Assembly: GCA_008632985.1 (NCBI GenBank)
Contig: QPGO01000068.1
Span: forward strand, 248,001 to 312,000
Direction of reading: 5' to 3'
DNA: 64,000 nucleotides
DNA from: Psammoneis japonica
Taxonomy: Eukaryota
Below the pieces are notes generated by a model. It was given only the letters and a program-made list of their open reading frames with translations, was not told the DNA's origin and made no database searches. Shown here piece by piece: positions 23,180 to 64,000 of this stretch. Numbering within the stretch: the stretch's first letter is position 1; each line of letters opens with the position of its first letter. Made by a program: the position numbers and the translations under genes.

Positions 23180-24530
23180 CAAGGCCCCAAGCTCACAAGA
23201 CAAGCCTGGGAGCACACCAAACCATTGCTCTCAAGGTGTCATGTGGCCCCTGCTGGGGATGTTCAGTGCCCTGAGCCTGCTCTTGTTGCCACCCTTCCAC
23301 TCTCATGTTTGAAATTTCTGGTCAAAAGTTGGCAAGGAGAAAGTGAGGTGAGGCCACAACTGCACAAGACAGGCCTCAGAGCACTCAACCACAGTTCTCA
23401 AGGTGTCACCTGGGCCCCACTGGGGATGTTCAGTGCCCTCAGTCTGCTCTTGTTATGCCTGTTTGCCCCACAATGGGGCCCTTCCATTCTTGTGTTTGAA
23501 ATTTCTGATCAAAACTTGGCAGGGAGAAAGAAAGGCAAAGCCCCAACTGCACAAGGCAGGCCTTGGATCACCCAACCATGGCTCTTAAGGTGTCGCGGGG
23601 ACCCCACTGGGGATGTTCAGTCGGTGCCCTCAGCCTGCTCTTGATGTGCCTGTTTGCCCCACAATGGGGTCCATCTGTTCTCAAGTTTGAAATTTCTGGT
23701 CAAAACTTGGCAGGAAAAAGAGAGTTGAGGCCCCAACTGCACAAGACAGGCATTTGAGCACCCAGCCATTGCTCTCAAGGTGTCACCTGGGACCCACTGG
23801 GGGTGCTCAGTGCCCTCAGTCTGCTCTTGTTGCATCTGTTGGCCTCACCTTTGAAACCTCAATTTTCTTGTCCATTGTGTGCAACAAGTGATGAAGAGGC
23901 ACAAACTGCACAACAAGACAAGTCTTGGAATGCCCAACCATGGCTCTCAAGGGGTCACTCGGGACCTGCCAGGGATGTTCGATGCTCTCAGTCTGCTTTT
24001 GTTGCATCTGTTCACCCCACAATGGGGTCTTTTCATTGCGATGGTTAAAATTTCAAGTTTCTTGGACATTGTGGTGGGCCATTCAAAAAGTGAAATGAGG
24101 CTTGAACTGCACAAGGAAGGCAATCATGGTTCTCAAATTGCCCCCTTTGCTTGAGATGCACTGGAGATGTTCAACACTCTCAGCTTGCAATGTTGTCATG
24201 TTTGTTGGCTCTGCCATTGGGTCCTTCCACTCTGGGGGACAAAGTTTCATGATGTCTGAGCAACCCTTTTGTGAAACAAGTCACATGACAACACAGGTGC
24301 ACAAGACAGGCCCATGACCACTCAACCATGTTTCTCAGAGTGTGCCCTGGGACCCACTGGAGATGTTCAATGCCCTCAACTTGCAGCTGTTGTGCTGGTT
24401 GGCTCTGCCATTGGGTCCTCCCACTTTGATTGTTGGTGTGTCAGTGATTTGCTTTTGTGTGTGAAAAGTGACATGACATGACATGACAAATGCACAAAAC
24501 ATGCCCATGACCACTCAACCACAGTTCTCA
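23180..24530. repeat. Tandem array of about 8 diverged 170-200-bp units
   Basis: Recurrent CCCCAACTGCACAAGACAGGC...CAACCATGGCTCTCAAGGTGTC...CCCACTGGGGATGTTCAGTGCCCTCAG near 23184, 23352, 23540, 23729, 23898, 24099, 24295, 24487. Confidence 0.85.
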
Positions 24531-28131: not shown

Positions 28132-31100
28132 TGTTGAACAAATGAAATCATCCACAAGTTGAAAACTGGCAGATGTGCAGTCATGAAGATGTTGAGGACA
28201 TGAAGCCAATTCCTCATCAATTGATCCAATTGATTGCAATTCAAAGGGACTGCAAAACATTCAGAATCCCTCTGTTGAGAGCTGAAAGTCATCTGTTCAA
28301 TGCTCAACACCAATGGGAAACCACTCCACTGCATGCTCACAATTTGTGAATTCACTTCACTGCAACAACCAAACTCTCCATCAGCCCCAATGCTCTGGTG
28401 AACATTGTCAGCTCCAGCTCTGATGGCCAGTGGTCAGGCATTTTGACATCTGCACTGAGCCAGACAGAAGAGATGACCAGTCATCAACATGTTTTTTCTG
28501 ACACCTGCTCAGGCCATCACAGGCATTCTTGACTTTGTCAAAAAGGCACATCAAGCCATTTGCAACAAGGCAGTTGAAACAATCATGGAAAATGGCTTTG
28601 ACTGGACACAATGGAAACTGTTTCTGTTCCTCAAGACCCTCAAAGATCAAGCTGCTAAGAATGGTTGGAATGAAGATGATGGAATCCTGATGATTCCTGA
28701 CAATCCAACAGACATCATGTTGGACACCACCAATTTGTTGACACACTGTGCAGTCAGATTGAATTGGACCTCATCTGCAAATGCAAGTGCTTGTGCATTG
28801 ATCAACCAGTGAGGCCACCACAAGACACAAGGATGCTTGTCCACCTTCTTGTGCACACACTTTCAGAAGGAAGCACGACCAGGATTCCAGTCTGGGAAAA
28901 GCAGCAAGAGATTGTCAAGAACAACAAGACACATCTGTTGGGAAACCTTCTGTCAAAGGTGACAATCCAACACAACTGCAACAAGCACCAGGATGAATCT
29001 CAGCAATCTTGACAAAAGTGTTGGCACAGTCTCAGGCAAGATCATTGAACTCAGTCAACATGTGCTCTTCCTGTTGCAAGCTCTCAAGTCTCATGGTGAG
29101 ACTGTGGAAGATCTTTGACTGAACTCATTCAAGGGGCACCTCACAGCATGTGGCAAGACATTTGTTGATTGCGCACATTGCAAGCAAAACAAGTGTGATG
29201 AAGGAAACAATGTAAACCCTGACAAAATGATGTGAGTGTTGCACAGTTGACAAGCACAAGGAGATGGCAAGGATGGAAGAATGGAGCACCCCATCCCTCA
29301 AGGAGGAGAAAATTCTGGCTCTAGAAGCCAAGGTTGATGCCCTCAAGAAATCATTGCAAGGCAAGAAACCTGATTCTAAGAAGAGAGGAAATGCCAAGAA
29401 TCACAATAAAAGAGGAAAGAAGACTTCTGGTCTGAAGCCAACTTGGTTGGAAAATGATGAAAGACCCACAAACAATCAACTTCTTTACAAGCCCCAACAC
29501 TGGAATGACAAGCCGTGCTGTCATTGTCACAAGGACACAGGCGGAAAGTGGGGTGGAAAGTGGCAGATCCACAAACCATCAGCATGTGAAAGAAAAAGCT
29601 TTGTTGCCCAAAAACTTGGAGGTGCAAAAAAAAAAAGTCCTCCCAAGAAGGGACAAGAGGTGCTGTCGACCAAGAAAACCCAGAAGGACCTCAAGCTGCT
29701 GAAACTGTCTAAAGCTCTCACTGCCATTGCAAATGAAATTGAATCCTCCAATGAAGAATGACTGGTGGAGCAAGGCAGCAAACCTGACTGTGAATGGGGA
29801 ATCCATGGAGTTGCCATTGGCATGATGTCATTGGCAATGTGGCGCGCAACTGCACTTGTGGCTGGACCACTGTTGCTGCCACCAATGCTGTTTGTGTGGA
29901 TGGCTGCAACCTGCAATTGGATCTCCATCACAGTTTGTGAATTGACAAGGGAAGCAATTGCAAATTCTGTTCCAAACAAATTTGTCACCGGAGCTCATGT
30001 GTTGCTGACAATTGTCATTTTTTGTCTCATTGTTCTCCTTGGCAAGGATCTAGAAAACCCAAATCCGTGCTGCACTTCACCACAAAGCAATGGAAGAAAT
30101 TCAGAAGATTGTTGTGGCAAGCCAAGTCAAGCATGCAATGGATGGGAAACAGAGTTGGTCAAAGTGTTGAAAGAAGAATTGATCAACTGTCCACAACCAA
30201 GCAATCCTGAAGAGGGAGAATCAGGTGAGTCCAAGAGTTGTCAAAGCTGATCAACAACAAACATCACAGAAGACATTCAACAGGCTGGCAGGCATGACTG
30301 CAGCACTGGCTGTCCTGGCAGTCTGCATGACAGTCCAGAATGAAGCTCTCAAATGAGAAAACATGACTCAATTTGACATGGATTTGGGACCTGCAGGCAT
30401 GGACAACTGATGCACTGGATGCATGTCCAGCTCAGCAACAGACTTTGTGAGCAAGCTCATGCCAAGTGAGCGAGCTGTGAAAGGATTTGGAGGGTCAAGA
30501 ACAAAAGGAGTCATGACAGGCACATTGCTCTGGCAATGGCATGATGACAATGGGGCTGGCTGCTCACTTGTTTAAAATCCCAAACTCGCACCATGCACCC
30601 AATGGCAAGGTTGTTTGTCTGTCAAGTCCCCAACACTGGGCAAAGACAGAAAAGGACTGCAAGCCAATTGAGGGTGCAGGGAAAGCACAGACTCCAAGCA
30701 GCACACTTTGCACTGGAAAGCCAGAAGAAAAATAAACTTGATGTTCCCCTGAGTCCAGAAACAAACTTTGCAATGTTCAGTCTTGCTCCTGGCTGTCAAA
30801 AGTTCAAAGCCTTCTGCACTGAATGTGGAGTCAATGATGCCACTGAAGTTGATGATCCTGTCAAAGCAAGTGAGGTGAACATTGTGAGCAATGATGAAGA
30901 GGACAATGGTGAGGAACAAGAGCCCAATGACTCAGGGTTGACGACACACACCTGGACCATGGATCCAATCAAGGCTGTCTTGCACCATGCTGAGAGTGAC
31001 AAACATGCCTCAGGGTTGGAGGACAACACTTTGGTTGCCACTCCATTCAATCTGGATGGACCATCTGAGGATGCAGGTGGAACTGGTCCACCTCAAATCA

Positions 31101-34100: not shown

Positions 34101-34661
34101 GGATCCTGTGTCAAGGGGAGAAATGTCTGTCCATCTCACAGACACAAAGAGGGGCAACTCACAGATTGTCTTGCAAAGCCAGCAAATGCAGACATGCTTC
34201 TCTCATTGTGTCCACTGATGATGGGGTGAACCCACTGCATTTTGCTGGGTGTTGAGTGCAATGTCCCAAATTGCAGGGCACATCTCTGATCAGCTGGATC
34301 ACATCAAAGGGCGGTTGCCCAATGTCCTGAACAAGACGGAGTGTCAAATGAATGACATCATCCTCAAGTTGAAAACTGGCAGATGTGCATTCATGAAAAC
34401 ATTGCAGACATGAAGCACCAATTCCTCATCAGTTGATCCAATTGACCGCAATTTAAAAGTTGCTGCAAAGTGTTCAGAATCCCTCTGTTGAGTTCTGAAA
34501 ATGATTTGTTGAATGCTCAGCACCAATGGAGAGCCACTCCACTGCATGCTCACAATTTGCAAGCTCACTTTGCTGTGACAACTGAACTCTCTGTCAGCCC
34601 CAATGCTCTGGTGAACGTTGTCAGCTCCAGCTCTGATGGCCAGCAATCAGGTGTTTTGACA
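28132..34661 (+). mobile_element. Full-length degenerate Ty1/Copia LTR retrotransposon; LTRs 28132-28448 and 34342-34661
   Basis: TG...CA LTR pair of ~320 bp; purine-rich tract before the 3' LTR; gag, protease (FDMDLGPAGMDN), integrase (VSVDQMVSPT, HGDNGMF, HQMNGAAEH), RT (ARLNTDGS, QLDHVKAFPQA), RNase H (WKSQLQTEIALSSTKSE, FEDN). TSD ambiguous because the flank is (CA)n. Confidence 0.93.
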
Positions 34662-46957: not shown

Positions 46958-49900
46958 TTAAGTGCGCCAACGGGAATTTCCGCTTCCAGAAGGGCCGCGA
47001 TTGTCCCTCCTATCGTCATAGTCTCTACGATCGCGTCGGTCGCCACCAGATCCCCAGCGGTCACCGCCATCACGACTACCATAGCCACCTCCACTTCGAC
47101 CCTCGTATCGGCCACCGCCATAGCCACCCCCGCGATCGCCACCATAACGACGATCGCGGTCATCCATTCCGGCACCACGACGGCGTGAGGGCGGTACATA
47201 CTTGCCCTTTGATGCCGCGTCGAGATCTCTGCTAGGTGGAGGCGCTCTCGCGCTCTGTTGCCGTTCCTTTTCTTTTCGGTCTCGCTCTTCATTCATTCTT
47301 GCTAATTCTGCTTGACGACGTTTCTCTTCTTCGGCGGCCTTCTTGCGACGCTCTTCCTCTCGTTTTGCCCGTTCTTCTTCCTCTATACGAGCTCGTTCCT
47401 CAGCAGCCTTGCGTTCTTCCTCTTCTTGCTTTCGCTTCTTCTCCTCTTCCTTTCTCTGTCTCGCGCGTTTCAGTTTACCCTTTTCGGCTTCGACTTCGGC
47501 AGCAGCATCGGCTTGCTTACAGACTTCCTTATGCTTGCTCTCCCTGGCAGTCATGGCGAGCTTCTCAAACTCACCAAGGTAAGCAAAGACGGAATTCTCC
47601 TCCAACTGAGACTTTTCTTTGACATCAACCTCCCATTGAAGCTTGGCGCGATTGGCCTTCTCTTTCACCTCGGCCTCATAACGTTCACGATCCTTCTTGA
47701 TCTTTGCTTCGTACTTCTTCTTTACAAGTGGCAACTCCTCGATACGAACCGCGCGTACAATGTAATCAATACGTTTCGCATCCTCCCGGATTTTACGCTC
47801 CGCGTCTTCACGCTTTTTGTTTGCCTTATCAGCATGCTCCTTGGCCAGCGCGGCAGTGTCAATGTTCGCAAGCTCCTCCTGTGTCAAGGTGTCCGTGTTC
47901 CGGTTCATGGCTTGCAGGTACTTCTTGGCCTCCATTGCCTTCATTTCCTTCTGGATCTTCTTGGCCTTCTCCTTTTCACGGAGTCTCTTCTCGCGTTCCA
48001 AGCGCTTGTCCTCTTCAACCTTCCTAGCGGCGTCTTCCTCTGCCTTTTGGCGTTCTTTCTCACGAATCTTTTCTTGCGCCAAGCGCTCAGCCTCTTCCTT
48101 GCGCTTTTCAATCGTGTTTTTGCGATCCAGAATAGCTTCATGCTCGGCCTCCATGTTGGAGCGAACCTCATTGTACAGGTTCGTGCGCACCGCCATGCGA
48201 TGGACCTCGTCGGGAGGATTAATGGTGAGACAAAAGCTCTGCAATTGCTTTGCCAGCACGGTAAGTTGCGAACGCATGGCATCGGACTCGAGCTGATCGT
48301 CCCCAAAACGCAAACAACCGGCGCGGTGGTCGATACGGACGCTGAGGGTCTTGTTCTGAGTAAAAACGACAATGGCCTTTTCCACTTGCTCAAACGTAAT
48401 GCCGAGGCCATCCGTGAGCTTTTTCAAGTTATCCATAGACAACGTGTGGTAAGCAGTTGACAAGTTCAACAAGAGCTTGAGTAGCAAGACGGATGTCAAG
48501 GGTTTGACATATCGTCCGAGGGTATTATCCTTGACATCGTCATTATCGACTTCAGAGTCAGTCAAGGTGGTAGCACCCGTTTCAAGCTTGAGTTTCTCCA
48601 ACAAAGGTTTGGCTTTATCCACCATGGCGAGAGGATCCGAGTTCTCTTCCAACAGGTCGTACAACTCACGGAGATATTCAGGAACGTCTTCCATCATGTT
48701 TTTGGAACGGATTTCGTTCAAGAGCACTTCACGGGTAGGATGGCGTGTGTGAAAGCCCAGGAGCGTAGCCATGCGAGCCGTCTTCTCCTTTGCAATGTCG
48801 TCTTCAATAGTACTTGTAATTCCATGTTGTTCCTGATTTGGTGAGCCAGACTTTTCTGAAGGAATCGACGGAATGCACAAGGTTGCCAAGAGGACGGCCG
48901 AGGCTTGCATTTGCTTCATCTCGTCACTCATGCCACGGTTGTACTCCTTGCAGAGCATGTAGTATTTGTACCATGCAAAGGCATGAAACAAGTAGTTCTC
49001 ACTCACCCAAAATAATGTGGTGAGTTTCTCGTAGTACGCAGCCATGAGCTTGGCCTTGGGAGGCGGGGCGTCGGGGACAGTCTTGCGGCGTGCACGGGAG
49101 ATTTGAAGAATGTTGTAAATGTCTTCCACAGTACGAAAGCCTTCGGTGTACAGATGCAACACACTGGCAGTTTCTAACTGAGCAAAGCGGGTTTGCAAAT
49201 GCAACTCAATGGCTTCAGATGTCCAGCCTTCCCAACCGCGAACCTGGTACAATCAAAAAATGCGGGTGTCAAAACGTGAGTTCGACTAGATTCAAAAGAC
49301 AATACTGGCTTTCTAGGGCCTACTAATTCTTGGTTGAAGCTCACCTTGTTGTTGGGTTTGCCGTCTTCGGGCAGTGGTGCGACACTTCCATACTTTTGAA
49401 GATTTCCCAAATGCATGCGAAGCATATCGCAAAGGCGACGAAACTCGGTGCGGCGCTTGTACACGCGACAAAAGCGAAGTGCTCCCACCGCAGCAGCGTG
49501 GTAAACGTGCTCCAACTTGGAGTTTGATTTCAAAATATCCAGCACAGCCCTGTACGTCTCCCAAAGAAATTTAATAGATGGAAGCAACAGAGTCGAATCT
49601 CTCTGAGCCTGACCGGGATCAGTGGACATGGTAGAAAGCAACAAAGCCTGAGGGGAGACATCACCCAACATATCCTCGTCCCCTTCGATGCCTTGGCTCT
49701 CGGGAATCGCATCAGCTAATACTTTGGCTTTCGTACACTTCTTCTCCGCCTCATCCATAAGGTATCGAATGACTTTCTCTAAGCTACCCGGAGCCTGCGA
49801 TTGACTCAAGTTTCGATACTGGTGCAAACCGTCCTTGGCCTCTCTCGGTTTGTGCAACTTGAGACACAAATTCAAATAGGTCAGCATGATTTGTTCGTAG

Positions 49901-50034
49901 GTCGGCGACCATGTTCGATGACGGCGAGAGCCAAGAATCTCATGCAACAGTTCGAGGGCAGCTTCAGACTGCCCTATGCTCTCCAATTCGAGGGCTCGTC
50001 GCAAAGCCAACTCGGGCTTGTGAAACAGAGACAT
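46958..50034 (-). CDS. EIF3A: Translation initiation factor 3 subunit A; exons 50034-49345 and 49243-46958
   Basis: KPELALRRALEL, AKDGLHQYRN, KFLWETYR, EFRRLCDMLRMHL, HLQTRFAQL, PCI region, E/K/R coiled coil, KYVPPSRR and an RD/G-rich tail. Confidence 0.96.
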
Positions 50035-50675
50035 GAGGAGAATCTATCAGTCCGTCGTCGTCAGCACCTTTTCTTTCTTTTTCTCAGGGTTTGATTTCCA
50101 CTTTTGAGCTTGTTGTGTCTCGTTTCTACCTTCTAATTTTTCTAGAGCGGTAAGGCAGAGTATATGTTGCTAAATAGCAAGACAGATACAACGCAAATAG
50201 CGGTGCAACAAGAACAACAACCCCAACGCGGACTTTTTGGATGTTGGAGACTGGAGACGTGCTTCCAACATGTTGCTGCGAGGCCCATAACCTGATGAAG
50301 AGAACGTGCGGCCATCGCGAGCCTCTGACTTGCGGGCGCATGACAGGCACTCTTCGGAGGCCGAATATATAATAACCTCTACTCTAGCTACTACCTCTAG
50401 CTAGAGAGTGGTCTACTGTACTATAACATATCGAACCTAACCTTGAACCTAAAGTAACCTTAGTCTCTACTAGCTAGCCCAGCTTCTATCCTTCTCTCGA
50501 GTTTACGTAATTCAAAGTAGCTAGCTCTATTAGTGCTAGCCAGGTCCTAGCTAGTAGATGATATTTGAGTCCCTCTCATCTTTAAGCACGCCGTTCTTCT
50601 CATCTGAGTCCCACCTCATCTCGCGACTCCGCCAACGGCAACGAAAGCTGTCTGCTCCTTTTAGGTTAAGTTGCA

Positions 50676-51140
50676 GTGATGTCATTTTCATGCGACGCAG
50701 CCTCTAGAGGTCCTAAATCGACTCCCCAGTCGATTATGCCGACACGACTTCCAACACCCAGTGCTGCACTTCCATCTCCAACTCCAAGCCCTCCTTTTTC
50801 TTCCAGTGTCATTTCAGACGCAAAAGTCCAAGCCCCTGGACACTCTTTCCTCCTACACCAAATAATCCCACCCCATCTACGCCACCAAAATTATATCCAA
50901 CTCCAGTCCCAACTTCCCGCCAACGCTACGTCCGACAAGGCCTCCGACGCCGAATCCAACACTTCTCAGACCCTTCCATATCGAGTCGTCCAGAAATTGC
51001 CGGAAAATGACTTTGATAAGGACGTAATCAAAATCGACAACAGCACTAAGTTTTCCGCTGTTCTCTCGGGTGTCTCCAGATCTTCTAACACGCGACACAA
51101 CACCACATTCAGGGATGGGACGAGACTGCGCGGCTTGTGA
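50676..51140 (+). CDS. Possible hypothetical Ser/Pro-rich protein or fragment
   Basis: 154-codon ORF in normal-composition DNA; no recognisable domain. Confidence 0.25.
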   Translation: MMSFSCDAASRGPKSTPQSIMPTRLPTPSAALPSPTPSPPFSSSVISDAKVQAPGHSFLLHQIIPPHLRHQNYIQLQSQLPANATSDKASDAESNTSQTLPYRVVQKLPENDFDKDVIKIDNSTKFSAVLSGVSRSSNTRHNTTFRDGTRLRGL

Positions 51141-51412
51141 TGTGCGAATCGCTTCTAATGTGCCGACTCTTTGGTGTTCGCAGCGACACCGAGAAGTGTA
51201 ACTTCGGTCTTGTCGCCTTTGATGAAAATAGATAAAATGTTGAAAACACCTCCAATACTGTTGACATTCCAGATCAGCTGAGTTCCAATTTGAAGTTCTT
51301 GCTGGGACGACGAGTTGACAGCACATCAAAATTTTCATTAAAGTAAGCTCAGCAAATTCCAATGTATCAGAACCAGTGCATTCTCTAGCTTCTCACTGGA
51401 TAAAGCGGGACC

Positions 51413-52516
51413 TTACGATCGAGAGAGACTCCGGTACCGACCAGCACGGTCAGGATCCAACCTTGCGACGCGCTCCAAACAAATCTCGGCCTTGGCTTGA
51501 TGGTCATGCCCACTATCATCTACATCTGCCATTTGGTCATGAATAAAGTGTAACGCCAGTAGGCCCCATTTGCATTTACCGTCTTCTGTTTCAATCAAGT
51601 CCTGAATAACGTCGACCTCTTCCTTCAGAATCTTGACGTAGTCTTGGGTTTGACAAGAGCCACGGTACTCGAGAAGGAGGAAGCGTAAATACCACCATGG
51701 CGTTTGATCATCTGGCTCAGTAAAGATAGCATTGTGCACCACTTCCAGCTCTTCTTGAATAATATCTGGAGAATCTTTCATGAGAAGTGGAAGCAGTTTT
51801 GATTTGTAATGAAAGGCGGACCCGTTGGAGAAGTTATCCTGTATCTTGGCATTTGAAAAGTCCCATTCCTGCTTTAGCAGACTATCCATGTCAGATTGCT
51901 TCAGAAGAATGGATGAGGTGGGCGTTGCACTGATAAGCTGTGGTCCCATTAGAGTTCCAGTCTTTTGATGCGACTCATCGATGCAAGTCCAGTTCCATGA
52001 TCCATCCAGTGGCATGACATCATTCTCACCACGAACTCTCTTACAGTATGCCATTGCAGAGATGATGAAGCGGCGGTAGTTCCAGCAATGAAAGTTACGT
52101 TCATCATAGTTGAGGAAGACTGCCACGAGGTCAAGTTCCTTTTCAAGTACCTGAAGAGACTCTTCAACCATGACGTGCTGCTGAATACTCCATTTCCTAT
52201 GAAACCAAGCTCCATAAGATTTGGGATTTCGCTCCAAGCATGCCTGCGTCAGGGACAACTCTGTCGCAATGTCTATCGTTCCGTTCAATAAATCACGACG
52301 GATATTCCATAAGTATGTGGGATCGGGGTTGACTTGAAGTAACTTGGCAACAAGAAGAAGCGTCTGCTTCGTGTCGTCGTCGTTCAGCTTCTGGCTCTTC
52401 ACCTTAAGAACTTTCTGGCTTAGAGTATTCCACTGCAGCGCTTTCTGCTCAAGCCCAGCAGATACCTTTGGATCCAACAAGCGTGCCTTGTATTCGCTGC
52501 GTTTACGACCGTGCAT
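51413..52516 (-). CDS. RABGGTA: Rab geranylgeranyltransferase (type II) alpha subunit
   Basis: MHGRKR start; prenyltransferase repeats NPD..WNIRR, NPKSYGAWFHRKW, DERNFHCWNYRR, NFSNGSAFHY, FTEPDDQTPWWY; LDPDRAGRY. Confidence 0.95.
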   Translation of the reverse strand: MHGRKRSEYKARLLDPKVSAGLEQKALQWNTLSQKVLKVKSQKLNDDDTKQTLLLVAKLLQVNPDPTYLWNIRRDLLNGTIDIATELSLTQACLERNPKSYGAWFHRKWSIQQHVMVEESLQVLEKELDLVAVFLNYDERNFHCWNYRRFIISAMAYCKRVRGENDVMPLDGSWNWTCIDESHQKTGTLMGPQLISATPTSSILLKQSDMDSLLKQEWDFSNAKIQDNFSNGSAFHYKSKLLPLLMKDSPDIIQEELEVVHNAIFTEPDDQTPWWYLRFLLLEYRGSCQTQDYVKILKEEVDVIQDLIETEDGKCKWGLLALHFIHDQMADVDDSGHDHQAKAEICLERVARLDPDRAGRYRSLSRS

Positions 52517-53310
52517 CTTTGCTTCTCTAGTAGAATAATCCCTTGAATGTGGTTGTGGGTTCGGGGCTTTGGGGCTTAGGGGCTTTGGGGCCTTTGCTGC
52601 GCTGGCTAGCTGGGGAGTGGGACAGGAGCGAGAAATTCGGACAGGCGCACAAGTGGATGAGTGTGCTCTTCTTGTCTATCTTGCTCTGGACATTGTTGAC
52701 GATGCTGTGACGATCTACGTCATCAGGTGTTGCCACCACAGCAATGCCACAATGCTGCAGAGGATGTTTGTGTCTGTTGCCATCATTTTGAACAAATGTC
52801 ACATTGTCTCCAGGCTGGACACTCCAACAAAGCAAAAAAGTTTTGACAAGTTGGTGCTCTGCTGCACACAGCAAATTGCAGTCTTTGCCCTGTCCGTTGA
52901 TGGAGACATTGCACCCACCAAACTCACTCTCCAAGCCAGCCTCCTGGTTCCACAAGCAAGCAAGATTTGGAGCAGCTTGAAGAGCTGGGCCCAACATGTT
53001 CTCAAGAACCACAAGCTGGGGCATCTGCTCGTCTTTGAACAAAAGATGTCGCTGCAGCAGTGCAAGAAGCTGGAGAGTTTTTGTGAGGCTCCAATGATTT
53101 CCTGAACAGCTTTGGTGCATTTTTGGTTGCTTGCCCTCCAGTCTCACCAGGGAACAACAAGAACAAAGCAGCAGCAGAGAGCGGCCACTGCGCAGCAACC
53201 CACCTGGAAACATTGGAGAGGGCAAGAGGGTTTGTCAGAGGATGGAGATGTCAAGAAGACAACAAACAGAGACTTGAGCAGCCCACTGCAGCAGCCAACA
53301 TGCCACTTCC

Positions 53311-56300
53311 TGACAGACATCCAAGATGGAGAGTGCACTCCCTTGTGTTGGACAGACTGGCACAGACAGCATGGAGAGATCCGATGATCTCTCCTTTGCG
53401 CTCACTTTCTTTCTCATCTAGCACACAATTGTCATCTGTCCCAGACATCCATTGGATTGTCCCTCACACTGGCAGTCTGTAAGGTTGTGAGCAACAGTGC
53501 GCTGTTTATCTTCCTCTGTGCTGCTCTGTTGCAAAGCCTGTTGTGTGATTTGGTGATTTTTCTTCGTTGAAATCGTCATCATTGTCACAGCCATTTTTTC
53601 ACCTCTTGATTTGTGATCAAACGACCACCGTAGAACACATGCCAGAGCTCTGTGTAGAAATTTGATTTTTTTCCCATGCAACCATGGTGAACAAAAATCA
53701 AATGCCATCCATTTGACCATGATAAAGTCAACACTGGTTGAATTCAATCCACATGATCGCTTGCCCGATGCACACCTTTTCCTGAATGCCCTTTGTTTGG
53801 ACAAGATCCCTGCTCCTGAAGATCTTCTGGATGGATTTGCTCCTCAGGGCCTCAAGCGTGACGCTCTTGCAACTCTCTGTCATGAGATTGTTCAAGACCT
53901 TGTCATTCCCCAAGCTGCGCTGACTGAAGATCTTGCGCGCATTGGATTGCTCACAGACAAGGCTCCCCTCTTTGTGGCTGCTCCTCAAGGCTCTCAGGTT
54001 TGCCTGAATCTTGCCAATCTTCAGAAGACTGTGATCAAGGCAATCTTGGAAGGTCATGATGCCACACAATGACACATGTTGGGACTCTTTGTCGCCATTT
54101 TCGTCCTGGTTTCCAGTGTCAGGATTGTTGGGATGACATCTCTGATGCTCCGCATCCAAGAAACTTGACGCCTGCTTCAAGTTCTGCATCTCCACCAGCT
54201 GCTGCTGCGGGGCCTGCACCTGAAGACTTTTGCCAAGGCCTTGGCCACCCATTCACCTGGTCCAAAACAGTTTGAACAGGCCATGACTGACATGTTGAAG
54301 ATGTCTGCTCCTCCTGCACCATCTCCTGCACCTTCTGCCATGACCACTGCTGCGGCCTCTTCCTCAACTGCCGCCAGTGCCATGCACACCTTGATCCAAA
54401 AGGACTTCCAAAGGATGCACCAGCTTGCTGCCAACACAAAGAAACTGGAAAAGCAGTGTCAGGGAAGTCACTGGCACCCTGCAAGTCTGGAAACCTTTGC
54501 CATGAAGATGGCGCCGAACATCTCATCCTCACTGATGGCTCCCTCTTTGTCCATTGCATTGATTGGGATGCCAAGTCCTTTCTTCATGACCCTCTCACTT
54601 GCGACGATGTCTCTCCTCAAGGAATCTGTGCATGGTGTGCTGCTGCAATCCAACAAGCCTTGGCTTGTGGCACACACATGCACCCCCTGTGGTGATTCAT
54701 CAAGGATGGTGGAAATTGGGGCTTCACAAGTGGCAATGATCCAACAGATGATCTCCAACTTTGGATGCGAGCACCACTTGGCTGGTCGAATGAAGTTGAC
54801 TGTCTTTCAGCACATCCAGAAGGTTGGAATTTTTCTGGCTGACTCCAAGTGCCCTGACATTGTTCATCAGTGCCATGGAGATGGATGTGCTGCCATCAAG
54901 ATGATCCTTTTCAACATCCTGCTGATTTGGACAAAGCGTCCATGTGAATTGATCAAGAGCTGCCCGCACCAAAACAATCTTACAATTCTTAGCTGCTGTG
55001 CTCTCTTCAGAGACTTCGTCCAGCTGCGGGCAATCATCTCCAATGTTGATGCCTCTCTTGATGACTCTGGTGAGCTGGACATTTTTCTTGGCAATGCCCA
55101 CTGTGGAGAGCACCTGCACCGAAAAACAGTGGACACCCATGAAGACGAGACCAAGCAACACAAGTTCTCTCAGAAGAAAATTGTTGAGACTGTTGGCACC
55201 ATCCTTGACGAACCAGACAGCCCTGCTCTTCGTGTCAAGGATCCTCCCAAGTGCCCTCCATGTCGTCTCCACAATCAGAACCCAGCCAATCCTCCTCTTG
55301 CAGCTCCTGTGTGAGCCCTTGACTTGCTGCCCAAAGATCAGGCATCTAATCCACCTCCAGTTGTTGAGGAGACTCCAATGGAAACTGAACCTCCCGGTGC
55401 AGAACAAGCCATGGATGCTGTGGAGTGCTTTGTAAATGAACTTGCTGCCATGGACATTCCTCCAGATGATGAAGCCCAGGCACTGCATGGTGTCTACAAG
55501 GCCTGCATCTACAGGATTGAGTCTTCACCTGCTGCTGCACAGACTCGCCCCTGTGTTGTTTGTGGTGAGGGCCACTTGTTCCATGAGTGTCCTGCATTGA
55601 ACAATGCTGAGCACCTGTGCACCCATCTCATCCAGTTCTCTCAGTTCCTTCAACGTGATCAATGTGCCTGAGATGCACTCATGTCTGAGAAGCCAAAGAA
55701 GGATTTTTCCTGGGGCTGTTGTTGCGTTTGGACGAACAATGCCACCCATCTCTCTCCAATCCAAAAACTCCTCCAAGCAGGGTAACTACAAAAGAGGGTC
55801 TAACCAACTCGTCACCTTCTGCTGAAACACCTCTTTCTCGTGTGTCAATTGCCAACCTTCTTTCGGATTCGACAAAGGCTGGCACTCGGATGTCAACACC
55901 ATTCCGGATGATGACCCTGACAGCACCAATCAGGGGAGGGAACCACCTTTGCACAAACCCTTTGTGCAAGAGACTGATGTCCCTCTGTCCACTGATCCAG
56001 ACCAAGATTTTGAATGCCTTGACATGACCACCAGCCAACATTTGTCGCCATTGAGTGCAGTGCATGTCTCCCCAATTTTTTCTCCGCTGGAATCACCTGC
56101 AACTTTTGAATTCTTGACTGCTCCTGTTGTTCCCATCAATCATGTGCTCCATGATTCAACAATCTGCCATGCACCAATTGATGCTGGTGCTTGGGCATCC
56201 TGCACAGGGGATGAGAACCTCCTTCATGATTGCACCCCATTTGGACTGGACAATCCCTGTCCTTTGAAGATGCTCCTTGCTGCTGAAGGATCTGATGCGG

Positions 56301-59300
56301 TCCCTCATGGCTTTGGCCATTTACAAGCACCCACAGAGAATGCTGAAGGCTTCCTTCTTGTGCACGCCTTTACCATCCAAGCCTGCATTCTACCCTGATT
56401 GATGAGTGCAATTTTGTGCGGGCTTCTGGTTTTAAACCAAAGGCCACTCACTCTGATCTTCTCAAGAAGATGCACGCTGATGGAACTTGCATGTGCACTG
56501 CTTCGACTGACACCCAAAAGGCAGTTGTCCATGGTGTCCTCCGACATGGCAAGGTTTTTACACAACCTCTGGTTCCCCTGTCTGTGACTGATGTCTCTTT
56601 GGCATCCACGACACTTGACCCAACCTCAGTTGATGACATTGATGGTGCATGCCAACGTGCAGTCTTTCATGTCAATGTTCAACAAACTCCATCTGACCCC
56701 CTGCTGATGGATGCTGAGTTGTTCTCAATGTAGTGTGGTTCGGTTGCACATGTCTTGCCACCATTGTCTGCTCCCACTCCGGTCTGCTTTCTCAAGGTTG
56801 AGACTGAATGTCTCCTGTGGCACCAGCAACTTGGACATCCCAGCGATCACTGTTTGCACAATGCTCACAAGTGTGTCAAAGGAGTCCTGAAGTTCCAACA
56901 TGCCAATCCAGTCCTTGACATTTGTCCTGCGTGTGTTCAGGCCAAGCAAGTCAAGACTCCCGCTGGACCAAATGCGACTCAAAAGGCAACTCAGCCACAC
57001 CAAGGCCTTGCTGTGGATTTTGCCTTTGCTGGTCAAGCTTCCAAGAACGAAGATTGCAAGTCTGACCATCTTGGATGCAGCGGTGAAATGTGTTGGATCA
57101 CTGTTTATGATCATCAAACACGTGTGCTCCATGGTGTTGCAAGGGTCTCTAAAGCCAGTCCTCTCAAGTGGCTTTGCCAATTCTTGGATCAACATTTGCT
57201 GAATTGTCGTGACAAACATGCATTTGTGGACCAAGGTGGGGAACTGTGCAAGAATCCCAAAGTTTGTGACCTCTTTGAACAAGAATTCTAGTGTGACACA
57301 TGTCCTTCTGGCGCTGGTGCATCCAACCGATGTGGCCCTGTTGAACGCTCACGTTCAACTGTCAAGAACGCGATTTGTGCAATTTTAATTGGTGCCAACC
57401 TCCCGATCAGATTCTGGCCCCATGCTTTTTGCCATTGCCTCTGCATCAAGAATGCTGCTCCTGCAAAAGATCAAGATGCATCCCCCATCACACTTGCCAC
57501 TGGAAAGGTCAAAGATTTTAGTGCCTTGAAGACTTTTGATGCCAAGTGTGGTCAAAATGCTCTGCTGCTTGTTCTGCTGCATTCCGGACAAATTCAAAGA
57601 AGTGTGTCTTCCTTGGCTGTCTGCTGAACACCCTGAAGAATGTTCTGTGGTGGGATCCAGAGACTGACAAAGTCAAGACAGCCAAGCATGTGGGCCATGA
57701 TGAAGCTGTGAATGATCTGTTTTTGGATCAACTTCCTCCGAATGCTGCCCATTTGCAATGCGTGGAAAATGGTCAGCCTTTTCCGGCTGAAACACAGGAC
57801 ACAACCGTGCCAATGTTTGCTTCTTTGTCAAACCCTTTGGCTGCGACTGTTGCTTGTGCCATGAAACGACCTCCCAAGGACCCCACCCATGGCTTTGGAT
57901 TCTCCCAGTGTGTGCCAATGGATTGTGTCTGCATGTCAGAAATCAAGCAGCGCAGTCCTGCCACCTCCTTGTTCTCCTCCCTCCTTGCTGCTCGAAACAA
58001 GATCATGGATGCATGTGTCATCTCTGTCAATGAGCATGAAGTCTTTACACCACAGGATGCTGAAGAAGCATTGTCTCAGGTCTTCCATGATGAAGTTCTG
58101 ACTTTCAAGATTGCCTTTGCAATGGAAAGACGTTTGGACTCCTGAACTCTTGACAAAGCATTTGAGGAAGTGGAGTCATTTGAGCCTGATTCCATGGAGA
58201 ATGACTCCCACGCACCTGAACTCACCTTGGAGGATGTGCGATGTGTTGCAGCTGTTCTCCATCCCAATGATGATTTCTCTGATGAGGCTGTCCCAACGGA
58301 TTTTTTTTATGCCCACCCAATGCGATTGGTTCCCGCTCTCTCACTCCGGAAGAGGCTGCTCTTGACCGTCTCACACCCGTGCCAAGCTCCATAAACTTGA
58401 CACATGGCCTGAATGGGAAGAAGGAGAGAAGTGTCAATTGGACCAATTTTGTGCACTTGGCATGCATGGACCTCCTCAACTGCATCCCCCTGGAGCGAAT
58501 GTCATGCGTCTGCATTGGGACTGCATGGCAAAGCCAGATGGACAACGCCGTTCCAGGCAATGTGGAGATGGATCCAAGTCGGCCATGCCAGCATTGCATG
58601 AGCTGACTTCCACCTGTTCATCGTGTGTGGAACATTCCATTAAAAAGATGTTCTTTGCTCTCAGTGCAGCTGTGTCCTGTCATGTCTTTGGTGGTGACAC
58701 CCGGGATGCCTGTGCTCATTCCCCTGGTCCTTCACAACCAGTTTTCATTGCCATTGATGACGCACATGCTGCGTGGTGTGAAAAACGTTTTGGCAAGAAA
58801 GTGCCCTGCCATTGTGTCCTCCTGCTCAAGCATGCTCTCCAAGGCCATCTTGAAGCTGGCGTCTCATGGGAAAAGCATGTCAACTTGATGCTGACGGGTG
58901 TGAAACTTCTTTTCTGCAATGCTGCTCATGACAAGTGCATCTGCTCTGGTGAATGTGATGGTGTCAAAGTCCTCTTGCTCCACCAAGTCAATGATTTTGC
59001 ACTTGCTTGTCCCTCCAAGAAGATTGCAAAAGAGATCTGTAACCATGTTGGAAAGGCTCTTCAGATGGAGAATGAGGACACCCCCCATTCAAGCATCTGG
59101 GTTTGGTCACTGAGTTCAATGGCATTGATGTCATCCAAAATGATGATTCCATCATGATTGATGTTGCCGGTCATCTGGACCACATCTTCAAGACCCACAG
59201 ATGGAATGCTCTCGCTGCGAATGAATTGGAAAATGATTTCAAGGCTGCACCTGCACCGGTCAATTGCACTCCTGATCTGTGTGCCACTGAAGGCCCAGCA

Positions 59301-60407
59301 GAGGGCACTCCCAAGTGTGATGCTCTCTCTGAGTCCCAAGGTTTCTCCTGTCATTCTGTCCTGGGTGAGTTGGTCTTTGCTTGTTCGTGTTGTTGCTTGG
59401 ATGTTGGTTGTCCTGTTGTCACTTTGTTTAAGTTCTCCAAGGCTCCAGCTTAAGTTCATTGTGATTCCCTCAAGTGCATGGCCAAGCATTTGTGGCGCAC
59501 CAAGCATTGGGGTTTGACGCGCAAGAAGGCCAAGTGTGATGCCGGTCTCCCTCCCAATGACTTTGAATGGCTTGAGGATGATCCATCTCTCCCCAACTTC
59601 CCTTGTGCTGATGATCTTTTTCAACTCCTTGGTTTCATTGATGTGGCTCATGCCGGTGAACTTTGGCATCAGCGGTCTGCCACTGGACATGCACATGTCC
59701 TTGCCGGTGCTGCAATTGATTGCTGTTGTCGCACCCAGACCATTGCAGCTGCCAATTCAACAGAGGCCAAATTTCTTGCAACCATCACTGGTGCCAAGCA
59801 GACTCTGCATCTTCGAATGGTTCTCAAAGAGCTGGGCTTTCCCCAACATGATCCTGCTCCCTTGCACATTGAAAATTCTTCTGCCATCCAGATGATCGAC
59901 AACAAGGTGCCTGCAGAGTGATCTCGCCACATTGACATTCAACATTTTGCAATCCAAGACTGGTGTGATGTGGGCAAAATTGTCGCTCAACACATTCCGG
60001 GTGTCATCAACCCTGCTGATGTCTTGACCAAGGCAGCGGGCTCGACACTTCATTCTTGCCATGCTTGCCATTTGATGGGACACTGCGGTTGATTGTTGTC
60101 ATGTTTGTGGGTCAAGTCTTGGGTGTGTTTCTTTTTTCTGGTCCTCTCATTTGTTTTGCCATTCTGGTCCTCTTTTTTTCTTTGGATCGTCTCTTTCTTT
60201 CTTGATGAGCTTTTGCATTGCTCATCAGGGGAGGGTGACAGACATCCAAGATGGGGAGTGCACTCCCTTGTGTTGGACAGACTGGCACAGACAGCATGGA
60301 GAGATCCGATGATCTCTCCTTTGCTCACTTTCTTTCTCATCTAGAGGGCATGATTGTCATCTGTCCCAGACATCCGTTAGATTGTCCCTCATGCCAGCAG
60401 TCTGTAA
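53311..60407 (+). mobile_element. Full-length degenerate Ty1/Copia LTR retrotransposon; 172-bp LTRs 53311-53482 and 60236-60407; 5-bp TSD CTTCC
   Basis: CTTCC at 53306-53310 and 60408-60412; PBS-like GGTTGTGAGC at 53483; PPT AGGGGAGGG at 60227-60235; zinc knuckle CVVCGEGHLFHEC, LWHQQLGH, DQGGEL, HALQGH, QVNDF, NSTEAKF, RHIDI, NPADVLTK. Confidence 0.95.
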
Positions 60408-62189
60408 CTTCCTTCCAAATTCAATGTGCTTTGCCAGCCTTCCAGCAACCACCATGGTTGAAGAAGACCAGACATCCGCTGAGGCAGGCACGAGTGCACA
60501 GAGCACCCCCTCTCACTCTTTGTTTGGGCTCCAAAAGGACATGCACAGGAGCATGCATGGTTTTGCAATGTCTGTGGCATCTCTGAAAAGAGAAGGTCAT
60601 TAACTCTAACTTTTGTGGGACTTGGAACAGAGGCGTGCTTTGTGTTCTTGCTGAGTCTTCAACTCACCACATTGGACGGGCGAGACATTGTCACACTGGG
60701 TGACAAATCAAGAGTCGACTGTCCTGCACATGGTGTTGACAACCAAGGGGCATGTGGCCAACTTGGAATGCTCTGTTCAAAGAATGGTGAGTTCAGCAAG
60801 GTCCATTTTGGAGCAGTTCAAGAAAAAAGGGAAACCTGTTCAACCTGCACAAGCCAGCATGATTTTTCATCAGCGACATCATCAAAGTGAGATCCCATGC
60901 AAAGTGGACCTGTCAGAATGCGGGGCTCCTTGCAGCAGATCTCAAAGTGGTCAATGATTGGGTCACAGACCATTTGGTCAGTCCATGTGAAAGGAGCTCA
61001 GTGGAATGGAGTCACCATGCCTGCGTTGCCAAGTTCATGGAGTGCGTGCAAGATGTCACCATCACAAAACTTGCAGCATGAAAAATTTTGGCCCTGACTC
61101 CAACCCCGGCTTTGGGGCAAGCCTCAACTTTTCCACTTTTGGCTGTTTAACTTGACACAAAACTCAACTTTTTAACTTTGGGTTTGACTTTTGTGCCTGT
61201 GGCTTTCAAATCCCACCAAGCAGCCCTTGTTTTTCAAGGCACAATGCAGCTCATCCACATCATTAAATTCACACCGATGTTTTTCATCAATCATTTGCTG
61301 TGCAGCAGCCTTGATGTTTTCCTTGTCCTTGACATCCTTCAGCAAACTTAAAATGGCTCAAAAATTCAAATTGCCACCGACAAAGCAACAATGATTGGTC
61401 AATGTGGCATTGTGCAAGAATCCACCACTTGCGTTGAAGGTGGATGCACCATGCAAAATTTCTGCCAAATTTGAACATCGTCCTTGACAATGTGTCACAT
61501 GCCCTTGTGGGCTTTCAAGTGTGCTGCACCATTCAAAAAATTTATCGTGGTGTTGAGCAGCAGCCAGTTGGCAATGGCGTTGGAGCCATCCTTCACATTT
61601 TCAGTTTCTCTGTTTGGTGAAGCAACTTTGGTCACTCAACCATGCAGTGCTGCCATCTTCATCACCAACAACACCATTCCCATTCCTCTCATTGTGTCAA
61701 AAAGATGTTTGTGATGCAGTGCTGCCATCTTCATCACTGATGGTTCCATTCTCATTCCTCTCATTGTCAAAAAGATTTCTGTGAAAGCACATGTGCCACC
61801 ATTGTGCAGAAAGCTGCTCCCAAAACTGTGCACTGCCCCCCCCCCATCTTGGGACTGCCACTGGGCCACCTGCATGTCTCCAAACCACTGGCAGAGCTGT
61901 TTTCCATGACACCATAAAATCTGCACCTGGTTTTTGCTCTTTTGAAGAAGGTGCCAACTCCACTGCAATGAACACTCTGAAAATGACCTTCAACCATGTT
62001 GCCACTCTCAATGTCCAAGTGACCCTGGCCATGGGATTTGTGCTTGTGGCTGACCTTGCCACAGCACTTGCCACAGAGGCCATTGTCCAACCACTCTCCA
62101 CATCAGTGACAGTGAAGAAAATGGGCTTTGCTGTCTTGGCATCAGGTGGAAGGTTGTTCTTTGTGAACTCAGGAAGCAAAAAGGCCTGG

Positions 62190-62700
62190 GACAGGCAGAC
62201 ACATTCAAGCAGATGAGCTGACACAGATGAAGAACATCTTGAGGCAATGGCAGGCATGAGATTTTTCAACAGCACAGATCCAGGCTCTTGTGGGTTGTAG
62301 ACAATTGTTCAATCTTGGGTGGGAGCATTTCCAGCAATGGACAGAAGCTGGCATCAAGCTTGCAGAGACTGTGCATCTTGCCAATCTCAGGCAGATGTCT
62401 TGCGAGTTTCGTGCAGCTGACAAGACAGAGATCTGCAAGACCAGCCAAGCTGCCAATGCCAGGTGACAACATCTCAAGCAAACCACAACAGCTCACATTG
62501 AGAGTGCAAAGCTGCTTGAGCATTCCAGTCTCATTGGGGACCATTGTGAGCAACTTAGAAACAAAGGGCACAGCTTCTTGAGAGCTTTGCATGCACAGAT
62601 CTCAGAAGGCATGGACTTGAGCTGTTTTCAATCAAAAAGACCAAGGCAACAAAGCACCATGAGATGCTTCATGTCCAGCATCAAGGCTGTGATGTCCGCA
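62190..62700 (-). pseudogene. Hypermutated leucine-rich-repeat gene remnant
   Basis: VPNETGMLKQLCTLNVSCC, LSPGIGSLAGLADLCL, LPEIGKMHSLCKLDASFC, LPPKIEQL..KSLDL: 24-aa LRRs, with an in-frame stop. Confidence 0.7.
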
Positions 62701-63609
62701 TGTGAGAAATCAAGCAAAACAATCCTGCCTTGCTCATTGATGCTGCACAGGCTTGGCCCACAAGGCAAGAGCAAGTGCGGTGCTTGGCACATCAAACAAG
62801 GCTTGTGTGGAGCACTGGTGCACCCATGTGTGACAGGATGAAAGGGACAACAAAGTTGTGTTGATGACAACAGCACACAGCTCAATGAACAAACATTTGT
62901 GGGAGCAACGCTGCACTCATTTTGCACTGACAACTCAATGCTCAAGTTGCAGTGTGACGCAATGACAAGTGCACGCATTGTGGACAACAACAAAGTGCAT
63001 TCATTTTGCATGTTAAAGACACAACTCCGCCACTGCACACTGTGCCAAAGTGGAAACAGTGCATGCTGGCATGCACTTTGAGCAGCAGTGTGATCTGAGT
63101 TGCCCCACCAATTTTCATGCCCCCAAATGCCATTGGCGGTTTGTGGAACCCGTGCATCCAAGAGGAGGCAATGAGCCTGCCAACACAAGCCTTGACCTCC
63201 CCATTTTAGGGCCCCACCCACTGCCAAGCCTGGAGCTGCAGCTGCGCCAGCACAAAGCATCTCAAACAATGAAGATGACAGGGTTGAAGGGCAGGAGGAA
63301 AGGGTCAAAAAGGACCAGATGCCTGCATGCATGAATGGGATGCACAAAAAAGGCTCATGAGGCATGCAAGTTTCATCATGTGCTCACAGCGTTGTCTTCT
63401 TTGGACTGCGCGCATGGCAAGGCTGGCTGTCTGACAAATGCCAACATCACAAGTGCAAACCAAGGCTTTGTGACATCATTTTGTTCTTGCAATGCATGCT
63501 TTTAAGAAAATGAGATGGATGAAAAATTGCACACTGTCACCACGAAGCAACCAAGACCACAAGAAGGACATCTGGCACAGAAAAAATTCATCTCAGCATT
63601 CACAACAAT

Positions 63610-64000
63610 GACTTGCCAACTTGCTGACATGCCAACATGCTGACTTGCTGACATGCCAACACACCAACTTGCCAACAGCAATGTCGACATGCCGACACGC
63701 TGACTCACCAACACGCCAATGTGCTGACTTGCCAACTCACCAACACGCTGACATGCTGACATGCCGACTTGCTGACTCACCAACTTGCTGACTGACTGAC
63801 ACACTGACTGGCCAACTCGCCAACATGAAGACCCACTGACTTGCCGACAGGCCGACTTGCCGACATGCCGACTCACGGACTCACCCACATGCCAACATGC
63901 CGACATGCCAACACCCTGACATGCCGACTTGCTGACTCACCAACTTGCCAACTGACTGACACACTGACTGGCCAACATGCCGACATGCCAACCCACTGAC
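63610..64000. repeat. 8-bp-unit minisatellite (CCAACATG / CCGACTTG / CTGACTCA variants)
   Basis: Continuous array whose variants differ mostly by CG/TG/CA exchange. Confidence 0.9.

Follow-up and report, generated by a model that had tools for sequence, protein, structure and literature searches.

In Bigelowiella natans, integrated viral DNA undergoes A>G/T>C changes at TpA only, at ~6e-7 per site per generation against a baseline rate of 3.5e-10, and ADAT2 was proposed as the enzyme (Mettrop et al., bioRxiv 10.64898/2026.01.13.699255). Repeat-induced point mutation (RIP) converts CpA to TpA (PMC2621366). In the diatom Phaeodactylum, transposon CG methylation is DNMT5-dependent (PMC9998398). 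Half-tRNA priming is known for the retrotransposons Ty5 and copia (PMC1181622). Here we analyse a stretch of 64,000 nucleotides from the diatom Psammoneis japonica (the window) and, within it, a decayed Ty1/copia long terminal repeat (LTR) retrotransposon at 53311-60407, in which TA and CG dinucleotides have been converted to TG and CA.

A first-pass annotation, made from the letters alone, had proposed that the LTRs and the primer-binding site (PBS) of this element record mutations that arose in place after insertion, far over background and not in reverse transcription. Five tests agree with this, and in-place double hypermutation of the element, at TA and at CG, is almost certain. The strings cited in that proposal were all located: CATCCATTGGATT at 53446 and CTCACACTGGCAG at 53463 in the 5' LTR, CATCCGTTAGATT at 60371 and CTCATGCCAGCAG at 60388 in the 3' LTR, and GGTTGTGAGC at 53483 in the PBS. 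The two LTRs have 11 mismatches, eight of them within TA, CG, TG or CA steps (53426-27, 53451, 53454, 53467-68, 53470-71). Three other mismatches (53330, 53422, 53423) are present as well, along with two 2-nt indels that the annotation passed over.

A 33-nt LTR motif has 65 exact matches across the genome of 91 Mb, and 20 candidate elements were retrieved for comparison. Eighteen LTR pairs were aligned and two were removed, being second copies of an insertion already represented, which left 16 independent pairs of one family; three loci with a truncated or extra second LTR (L061, L066, L071) stayed outside the alignment. The expected enrichment was found in this family: TA, CG, TG or CA steps account for 190 of the 207 mismatched bases, compared to 47% expected (p 8e-43). 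The 2704 aligned positions contain 56 TG/CA doubles, 44 TA-type singles and 34 CG-type singles, the remaining mismatches being seven other transitions, nine transversions and one ambiguous case. A lone TG/CA difference cannot separate a TA from a CG origin. Since the two LTRs of one element differ, the changes occurred after insertion. Outside the four steps, 9 of 1396 sites differ, against 207 of 2704 overall, and thus dating by LTR divergence is inflated many-fold in such genomes.

The PBS had been read as departing from the sequence that tRNA-Met pairing predicts. For a host tRNA-Met gene (L041, G000:C15:145072), of the initiator type by its features, the prediction is GGTTATGAGC, which is the annotated guess in its A form. 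The dinucleotide at the substituted position is TG in 12, CA in six and TA in one of 19 independent elements; a wider regular-expression census restricted to the same forms (n=25) gave 16, 8 and 1, respectively. A PBS with TG could still pair by wobble, and one with CA could not. The target-site duplications (TSDs) of the 16 pairs are perfect 5-bp repeats in 11 cases and have a one-base difference in five; in three of the 16 the difference is at a TA or CG step. In the close copies L077 and L068, the outcomes at TA sites are the same in 70 cases and different in 73, at 1.5% background divergence. Editing of RNA or cDNA in the course of retrotransposition (ADAR- or APOBEC-like) has very little left to recommend it. 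Two ADAT1/ADAR-type genes are present, and ADAR prefers a 5' U (bioRxiv 10.64898/2026.01.13.699255). However, such editing does not agree with the near equality of TG and CA, the differences between LTRs within an element, or the TA to CA change in the PBS (6/19), and as the main cause it is refuted by the changes in TSDs and single-copy flanks.

TA is the ancestral state and not the derived one, which excludes the polarity of RIP. This follows from three observations. Firstly, the tRNA template of the PBS predicts TA. Secondly, the reverse-transcriptase (RT) piece of the element has no tyrosine in 263 residues and, by a count made by eye, nine of its positions that are Tyr in homologues are occupied by Cys or His; four database homologues likewise show Tyr replaced by His or Cys. 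Finally, the 3' half of L065 (G000:C18:398700-402500) keeps ~70 TA sites, 50-63 of which read TG or CA in each of five siblings, with 0-2 reverse cases. L065 is a short non-autonomous derivative, TA being spared in its 3' half and 3' LTR and stripped from the 5' half and from the flanks on both sides; its CG decay resembles that of the siblings.

Rates were obtained from seven close full-length copies; the 18-copy alignment mixes in poorly aligning short derivatives. TA is kept in 161 of 1351 alignment cells (11.9%), and CG in 1403 of 2072 (67.7%). Treating all columns with only TG and CA as TA-derived was tried and dropped: it gave an excess of 6:1 columns, explicable by background change followed by resolution. 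With the stricter columns, TA retention is the above 11.9% instead of 8.7%. The background per site per copy is 0.0056-0.0069 for A>G (AA 0.0069, CA 0.0062, GA 0.0056) and 0.006-0.007 for C>T, and among singletons no class is rarer than C>T preceding A. The enrichment over background is thus ~170-fold for TA and ~30-fold for CG, and ~220-fold and ~60-fold in LTR columns; the true TA rates would be at least this high, since saturation has been reached in the most favoured contexts. The outcomes are nearly balanced, with TG in 638 and CA in 552 cases at TA sites, and 368 and 301 at CG sites. Neighbouring outcomes within a copy agree in a fraction of 0.50-0.52, equal to permutations, and no strand-coordinated or processive mutation was detected in this test. 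Such near-equal, uncoordinated outcomes point to single hits that struck one or the other strand of chromosomal, double-stranded DNA independently, after insertion.

The TA process has a distinct context. By the base following the A on its own strand (+1), the rates are 2.8 for T, 2.2 for C, 1.4 for G and 0.8 for A, with a pyrimidine/purine ratio of 2.3 (bootstrap 1.9-2.7). Background A>G changes outside TA have the identical +1 ranking (p 0.002) and may be an off-target leak. In 39 hand-spaced, non-random 10-kb stretches of the genome (384 N-free kb, larger contigs favoured), tetranucleotides with central TA range from ATAT at 0.002 to TTAA at 0.44 of the genic level, with ATAT, ATAC and GTAC almost gone and TTAA surviving best. 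In two pairs of duplicates of the same insertion, the TA outcomes are shared at 137 of 142 and 163 of 167 sites, yet 53-55 CG sites differ, and therefore TA loss comes first. A burst directly after insertion was considered as well, but the duplicates fit context heterogeneity or a steady high rate equally. With the baseline borrowed from B. natans, a rough calculation suggests that the LTR pairs may be of the order of 1e7 generations old and the mean TA rate at least 1e-7 per base.

Blocks of two states, genes and repeats, make up the window as a mosaic. The gene blocks (Rad51, eIF3a, a prenyltransferase subunit) have TA observed/expected ratios (o/e) mostly of 0.4-0.7 and CG of ~1.0, whereas in the repeat blocks TA is at 0.0-0.16, CG mostly at 0.07-0.4 and TG/CA at 1.6-2.1. 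The element itself has TA at 0.08 and TG/CA at 1.68, and its 6753 bp of inter-LTR sequence contain 31 TA and 124 CG. The 586-bp left flank, whose sole genome match is itself and whose depth in sequencing run X1 is single-copy, contains no TA, possibly through leakage from the adjoining element. In the genome sample, 160 of the 384 kb have at most 10 TA and 189 have at least 25. CG loss is confined to repeats (CG o/e 0.39 versus 0.96). TA-poor DNA with normal CG accounts for 31 kb, and the reverse case for one. TA loss and CG loss are two separable processes, TA loss being ~4-6 times faster. The CG loss is consistent with deamination of 5-methylcytosine (5mC), methylation being presumed.

The same TA context is found, patchily, in a related copia family from metagenomes. 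A search for related RT yielded 80 loci, 67 of them in one cluster, of which 65 were aligned and 53 are distinct; copies with many mutations are under-represented by the search patterns. Among the 53 copies, TA loss ranges from 0 to 64% and exceeds 30% in 10; the mean CG loss is 23%, and it does not correlate with TA loss (rho 0.19, p 0.17). The polarity in the affected copies is that of the diatom: with duplicates counted, GTAA became CA in 24 and TG in six cases, and CTAC became TG in 13 and CA in two. An artefact of assembly or polishing, or a neutral composition bias, is a negligible candidate. The supporting DNA run is perhaps from the assembly's own sample. However, its contigs reproduce the sequence, differing over 48000-62000 by eight listed bases and seven small indels; the adjoining genes have TA o/e of ~0.5 and CG of ~1.0; and the context recurs in these unrelated metagenome contigs.

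The best overall explanation, to which we would give about even weight, is that two host processes act on the domain around an inserted copia element. Insertion came first, and the surrounding domain was then struck. CG would turn into TG or CA by deamination of methylated CpG. TA turns into TG or CA by a domain-targeted, non-processive A:T to G:C change on both strands of chromosomal DNA that needs a 5' T and favours a 3' pyrimidine, with ~90% of TA removed against one third of CG lost. For the chemistry, we favour adenine deamination, since some engineered TadA variants have YAY > YAR or YAC preferences (PMC12528748) that agree with the T-A-pyrimidine motif; we hold it slightly less probable than its negation. 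A TadA/ADAT-fold enzyme, recruited to silenced chromatin, might convert adenine into hypoxanthine, to be fixed as G at replication. The loss of tyrosine codons and the PBS mismatch would inactivate elements, a kind of inverse RIP that may serve in defence.

In favour of this explanation, the genome encodes an ordinary ADAT2 (L086), a TadA-like gene whose product probably bears a targeting peptide, and the two ADAT1/ADAR-type genes (L104 and L105, at separate loci on G000:C40 and C79), and an MPG/AAG glycosylase was not found in it. Several observations weigh against the explanation. The matching TadA variants are engineered and act on single-stranded DNA, and a motif preference is lacking in ABE8e (PMC12528748). 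None of the deaminase genes is tied to the TA process, and their activity on DNA is only a candidate one. L086 does have the ADAT2 asparagine highlighted for B. natans, but mouse, yeast and human ADAT2 share it, and it is thus uninformative. Among the 9 and 5 matches there was no polynucleotide deaminase of an expanded or unusual kind. EndoV is present, and the AAG glycosylase was possibly missed through intron splitting. The neighbour-outcome test took in poorly aligning short derivative copies. On sequence grounds A>G cannot be told from T>C on the opposite strand, and a modified T fits equally well. Finally, one LTR site shows coupling of CG and TA. This is the site where CG to CA and TA to TG had been noted side by side: of 10 copies with the upstream CG to CA change, 6 have lost TA, compared to 1 of 38 others (p 1e-4), in a set partly chosen by similarity to the 5' LTR of the window. 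The example is present but atypical, as the internal region shows no such coupling (p 0.28). A difference of context, ATTAG versus GTTAG, was considered as its cause and is insufficient (0.15 versus 0.19).

This coupled site, together with the common domains of TA and CG loss, could point to error-prone patch repair by a polymerase-eta-like enzyme, which would mutate nearby TA while repairing T:G mismatches left by 5mC deamination; polymerase eta indeed produces A-to-G changes at WA (PMC2213188). We consider this improbable. The predicted hits at AA are lacking, the AA background being close to those of CA and GA. There is no strand coordination, and no general CG-TA coupling was observed either in cross-correlation or in the internal region. 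TA-stripped DNA with normal CG is common, whereas L065 shows CG decay without TA loss.

Another possibility is that TpA in repeats bears a symmetric epigenetic modification (an oxidised or otherwise modified T, or N6-methyladenine, 6mA), and that TA loss is its mutagenic by-product, as in the decay of methylated CpG. TA is palindromic like CG, the affected strand is random, the domains are sharp-edged and include single-copy DNA, and the preferred context is purine-T-A on the T strand. On the other hand, TA is almost completely lost at below 1% background divergence, faster than the passive CpG decay in the same DNA, and TAC is struck nearly as hard as TAT, to which plain ApT 6mA is unfitting. 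No TET/JBP match was found in the genome, although this is a weak argument since the control search was also blank. On balance, such a modification seems unlikely, though it deserves serious attention.

The architecture of the element is summarised in the table. The terminal direct repeats, the short TSD, the PBS with one change relative to L041 and the purine tract are those of Ty1/copia elements, and so is the domain order, with PF13976 at 56.8 kb preceding the RT piece at 58.4 kb, that is, integrase before RVT_2-type RT. The RT piece has no match in a Pfam search and was identified by its homologues, 4 of 11 of which contain PF07727. LTRs commonly have the termini TG...CA; here they are TG...AA in the window element and end in TAA, CAA or TGA across the family.

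Features of the retrotransposon at 53311-60407 and its flanks (window coordinates)
Feature	Position	Strand	Remarks
Left flank	52720..53305	.	TA-free: 0 TA and 5 CG in 586 bp; single copy
5' target-site duplication	53306..53310	+	CTTCC
5' LTR	53311..53482	+	172 nt, termini TG...AA; remaining TA 2, CG 2
Primer-binding site	53483..53492	+	complements anticodon arm of host tRNA-Met; TG where tRNA predicts TA
gag-pol region, decayed	53493..60227	+	frames interrupted by stops and frameshifts
GAG-pre-integrase domain	56779..56949	+	PF13976, E 1.5e-7
Retroviral polymerase SH3-like domain	57546..57707	+	PF25597, E 1.6e-4, under curated cut-off
Reverse-transcriptase piece	58366..59154	+	263 aa, zero Tyr; by homologues
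Polypurine tract	60228..60235	+	GGGGAGGG
3' LTR	60236..60407	+	172 nt; remaining TA 3, CG 2
3' target-site duplication	60408..60412	+	CTTCC
Right flank	60413..64000	.	TA-stripped as well, 2-6 TA per kb

Seven members of the LTR family (L062, L063, L065, L069, L074, L075, L078) are 2.2-2.7-kb derivatives that share the LTR, PBS and purine tract and have a different interior. The insertions L070/L079 and L077/L080 are each present on two contigs, with 0.77% and 0.45% background divergence, and are haplotigs or segmental duplicates. Run X1 carries small insertions relative to the assembly at 52578, 53217, 55886, 56371 and 57533, and errors of assembly may account for some of the frameshifts seen in the window. 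In run X2 an intron is skipped and the element is barely covered, which we take as no evidence on expression.

Other repeats were observed in the window. A degenerate 8-nt tandem array at 63595-64000 has units that vary mostly at TG, CA and CG positions, and a degenerate repeat of ~190 nt lies at 23215-24530 inside a TA-stripped block. An older direct-repeat pair (28132-28448 and 34342-34661, 6.2 kb apart) is ~83% alike, with TA and CG nearly exhausted; it has 11 TG/CA doubles amid many background changes and was set aside. No enrichment (3/10) is seen for a duplicate located within a gene block (39163/39638). Elsewhere in the genome there are 27 matches to the C5-methyltransferase family PF00145, five of them near full length in one open frame. 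The copies L095-L097 and L101 (G000:C301, C297) lie in TA-stripped, nearly Tyr-free DNA with CG mostly kept, and some of them have stops; they are possibly duplicated or transposon-borne. L085 (G000:C79:87006-90176) was considered as a deaminase fusion and rejected: it matches guanine deaminase and a thymine dioxygenase-like 2OG-Fe(II) oxygenase in one frame, and is likely a base-salvage enzyme. The genome has 24 silicon-transporter matches of up to 697 bits, which point to a diatom host, and a 1511-aa single open frame at G000:C38:226311-230342 consists of three silicon-transporter units.

A targeted A-to-G process has been reported so far only in one unrelated alga, with the enzyme not known; here such a process has remodelled a large share of a diatom genome, with LTR pairs, TSDs and PBS as an internal clock. 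To our knowledge, natural enzymes deaminating adenine in chromosomal DNA are barely documented. The repeat hypermutation known to us goes toward A+T, and the diatom process goes the opposite way. The measured motif and the independence from CG loss allow a direct test of a mechanism shared with B. natans and provide a substrate for the enzyme hunt. Repeats devoid of tyrosine can also evade protein-family searches, as the RT piece did. A literature search for a TpA process in diatoms or transposons, with subscription journals mostly uncovered, returned only fungal RIP and unrelated papers.

Among known systems, the element resembles the half-tRNA-primed Ty1/copia elements (Ty5, copia, Osser; PMC1181622) in its LTRs, 5-bp TSD, integrase region before RT and PBS complementary to the anticodon arm of Met-tRNA, but its LTRs end in AA (TAA and its derivatives CAA and TGA) and not in CA. 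The diatom CoDi elements (PMC2806351) likewise have LTRs, a 5-bp TSD and an integrase region ahead of RT. The mutational process shares with ascomycete RIP the in-place transition hypermutation of repeats, the dinucleotide target and the sharp domains. However, TpA is destroyed, CA and TG are created, the stripping is as complete in single-copy DNA as in repeats, and strand coordination is absent; the process is not RIP. Deamination of methylated CpG under the diatom DNMT5 is similar in changing CG to TG or CA within transposon domains only, but accounts just for the slower CG component and cannot yield TG or CA from TA.

The closest system is B. natans with its inserts of nucleocytoplasmic large DNA viruses (NCLDV) as well as of virophages. 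In both cases A:T changes to G:C at TpA only, giving TG or CA, locally and hundreds-fold over background; single-copy DNA is struck; and the enzyme is not known. The diatom shows the TpA restriction on both strands, the localisation to selfish DNA and the independence from a second copy. Both appear patchy, between lines in B. natans and between copies in the present case: L065 is half spared, and the metagenome copies vary widely. The differences are in the host, a stramenopile and not a rhizarian; in the targets, which are endogenous LTR elements and their flanks, ~40% of the sampled DNA; and in the saturation, with TA o/e of 0.06 in the diatom versus 0.45 in the NCLDV region. The accompanying CG decay and the measured +1 pyrimidine preference are features of the diatom; a term search of the main text of the preprint found no mention of diatom, CpG, LTR, trinucleotide or context. 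As a tentative conjecture, diatoms and chlorarachniophytes might share a natural TadA/ADAT-fold adenine base editor that would be guided to silenced chromatin and, in genomic DNA, deaminate the A of T-A-pyrimidine on either strand, erasing transposon tyrosine codons and priming sites across ~40% of the genome, as an inverse-RIP defence independent of CpG decay and present in more than one lineage. In spectrum and locality, the TA process of the diatom appears to work like that of B. natans, a common enzyme or descent being conjectural.

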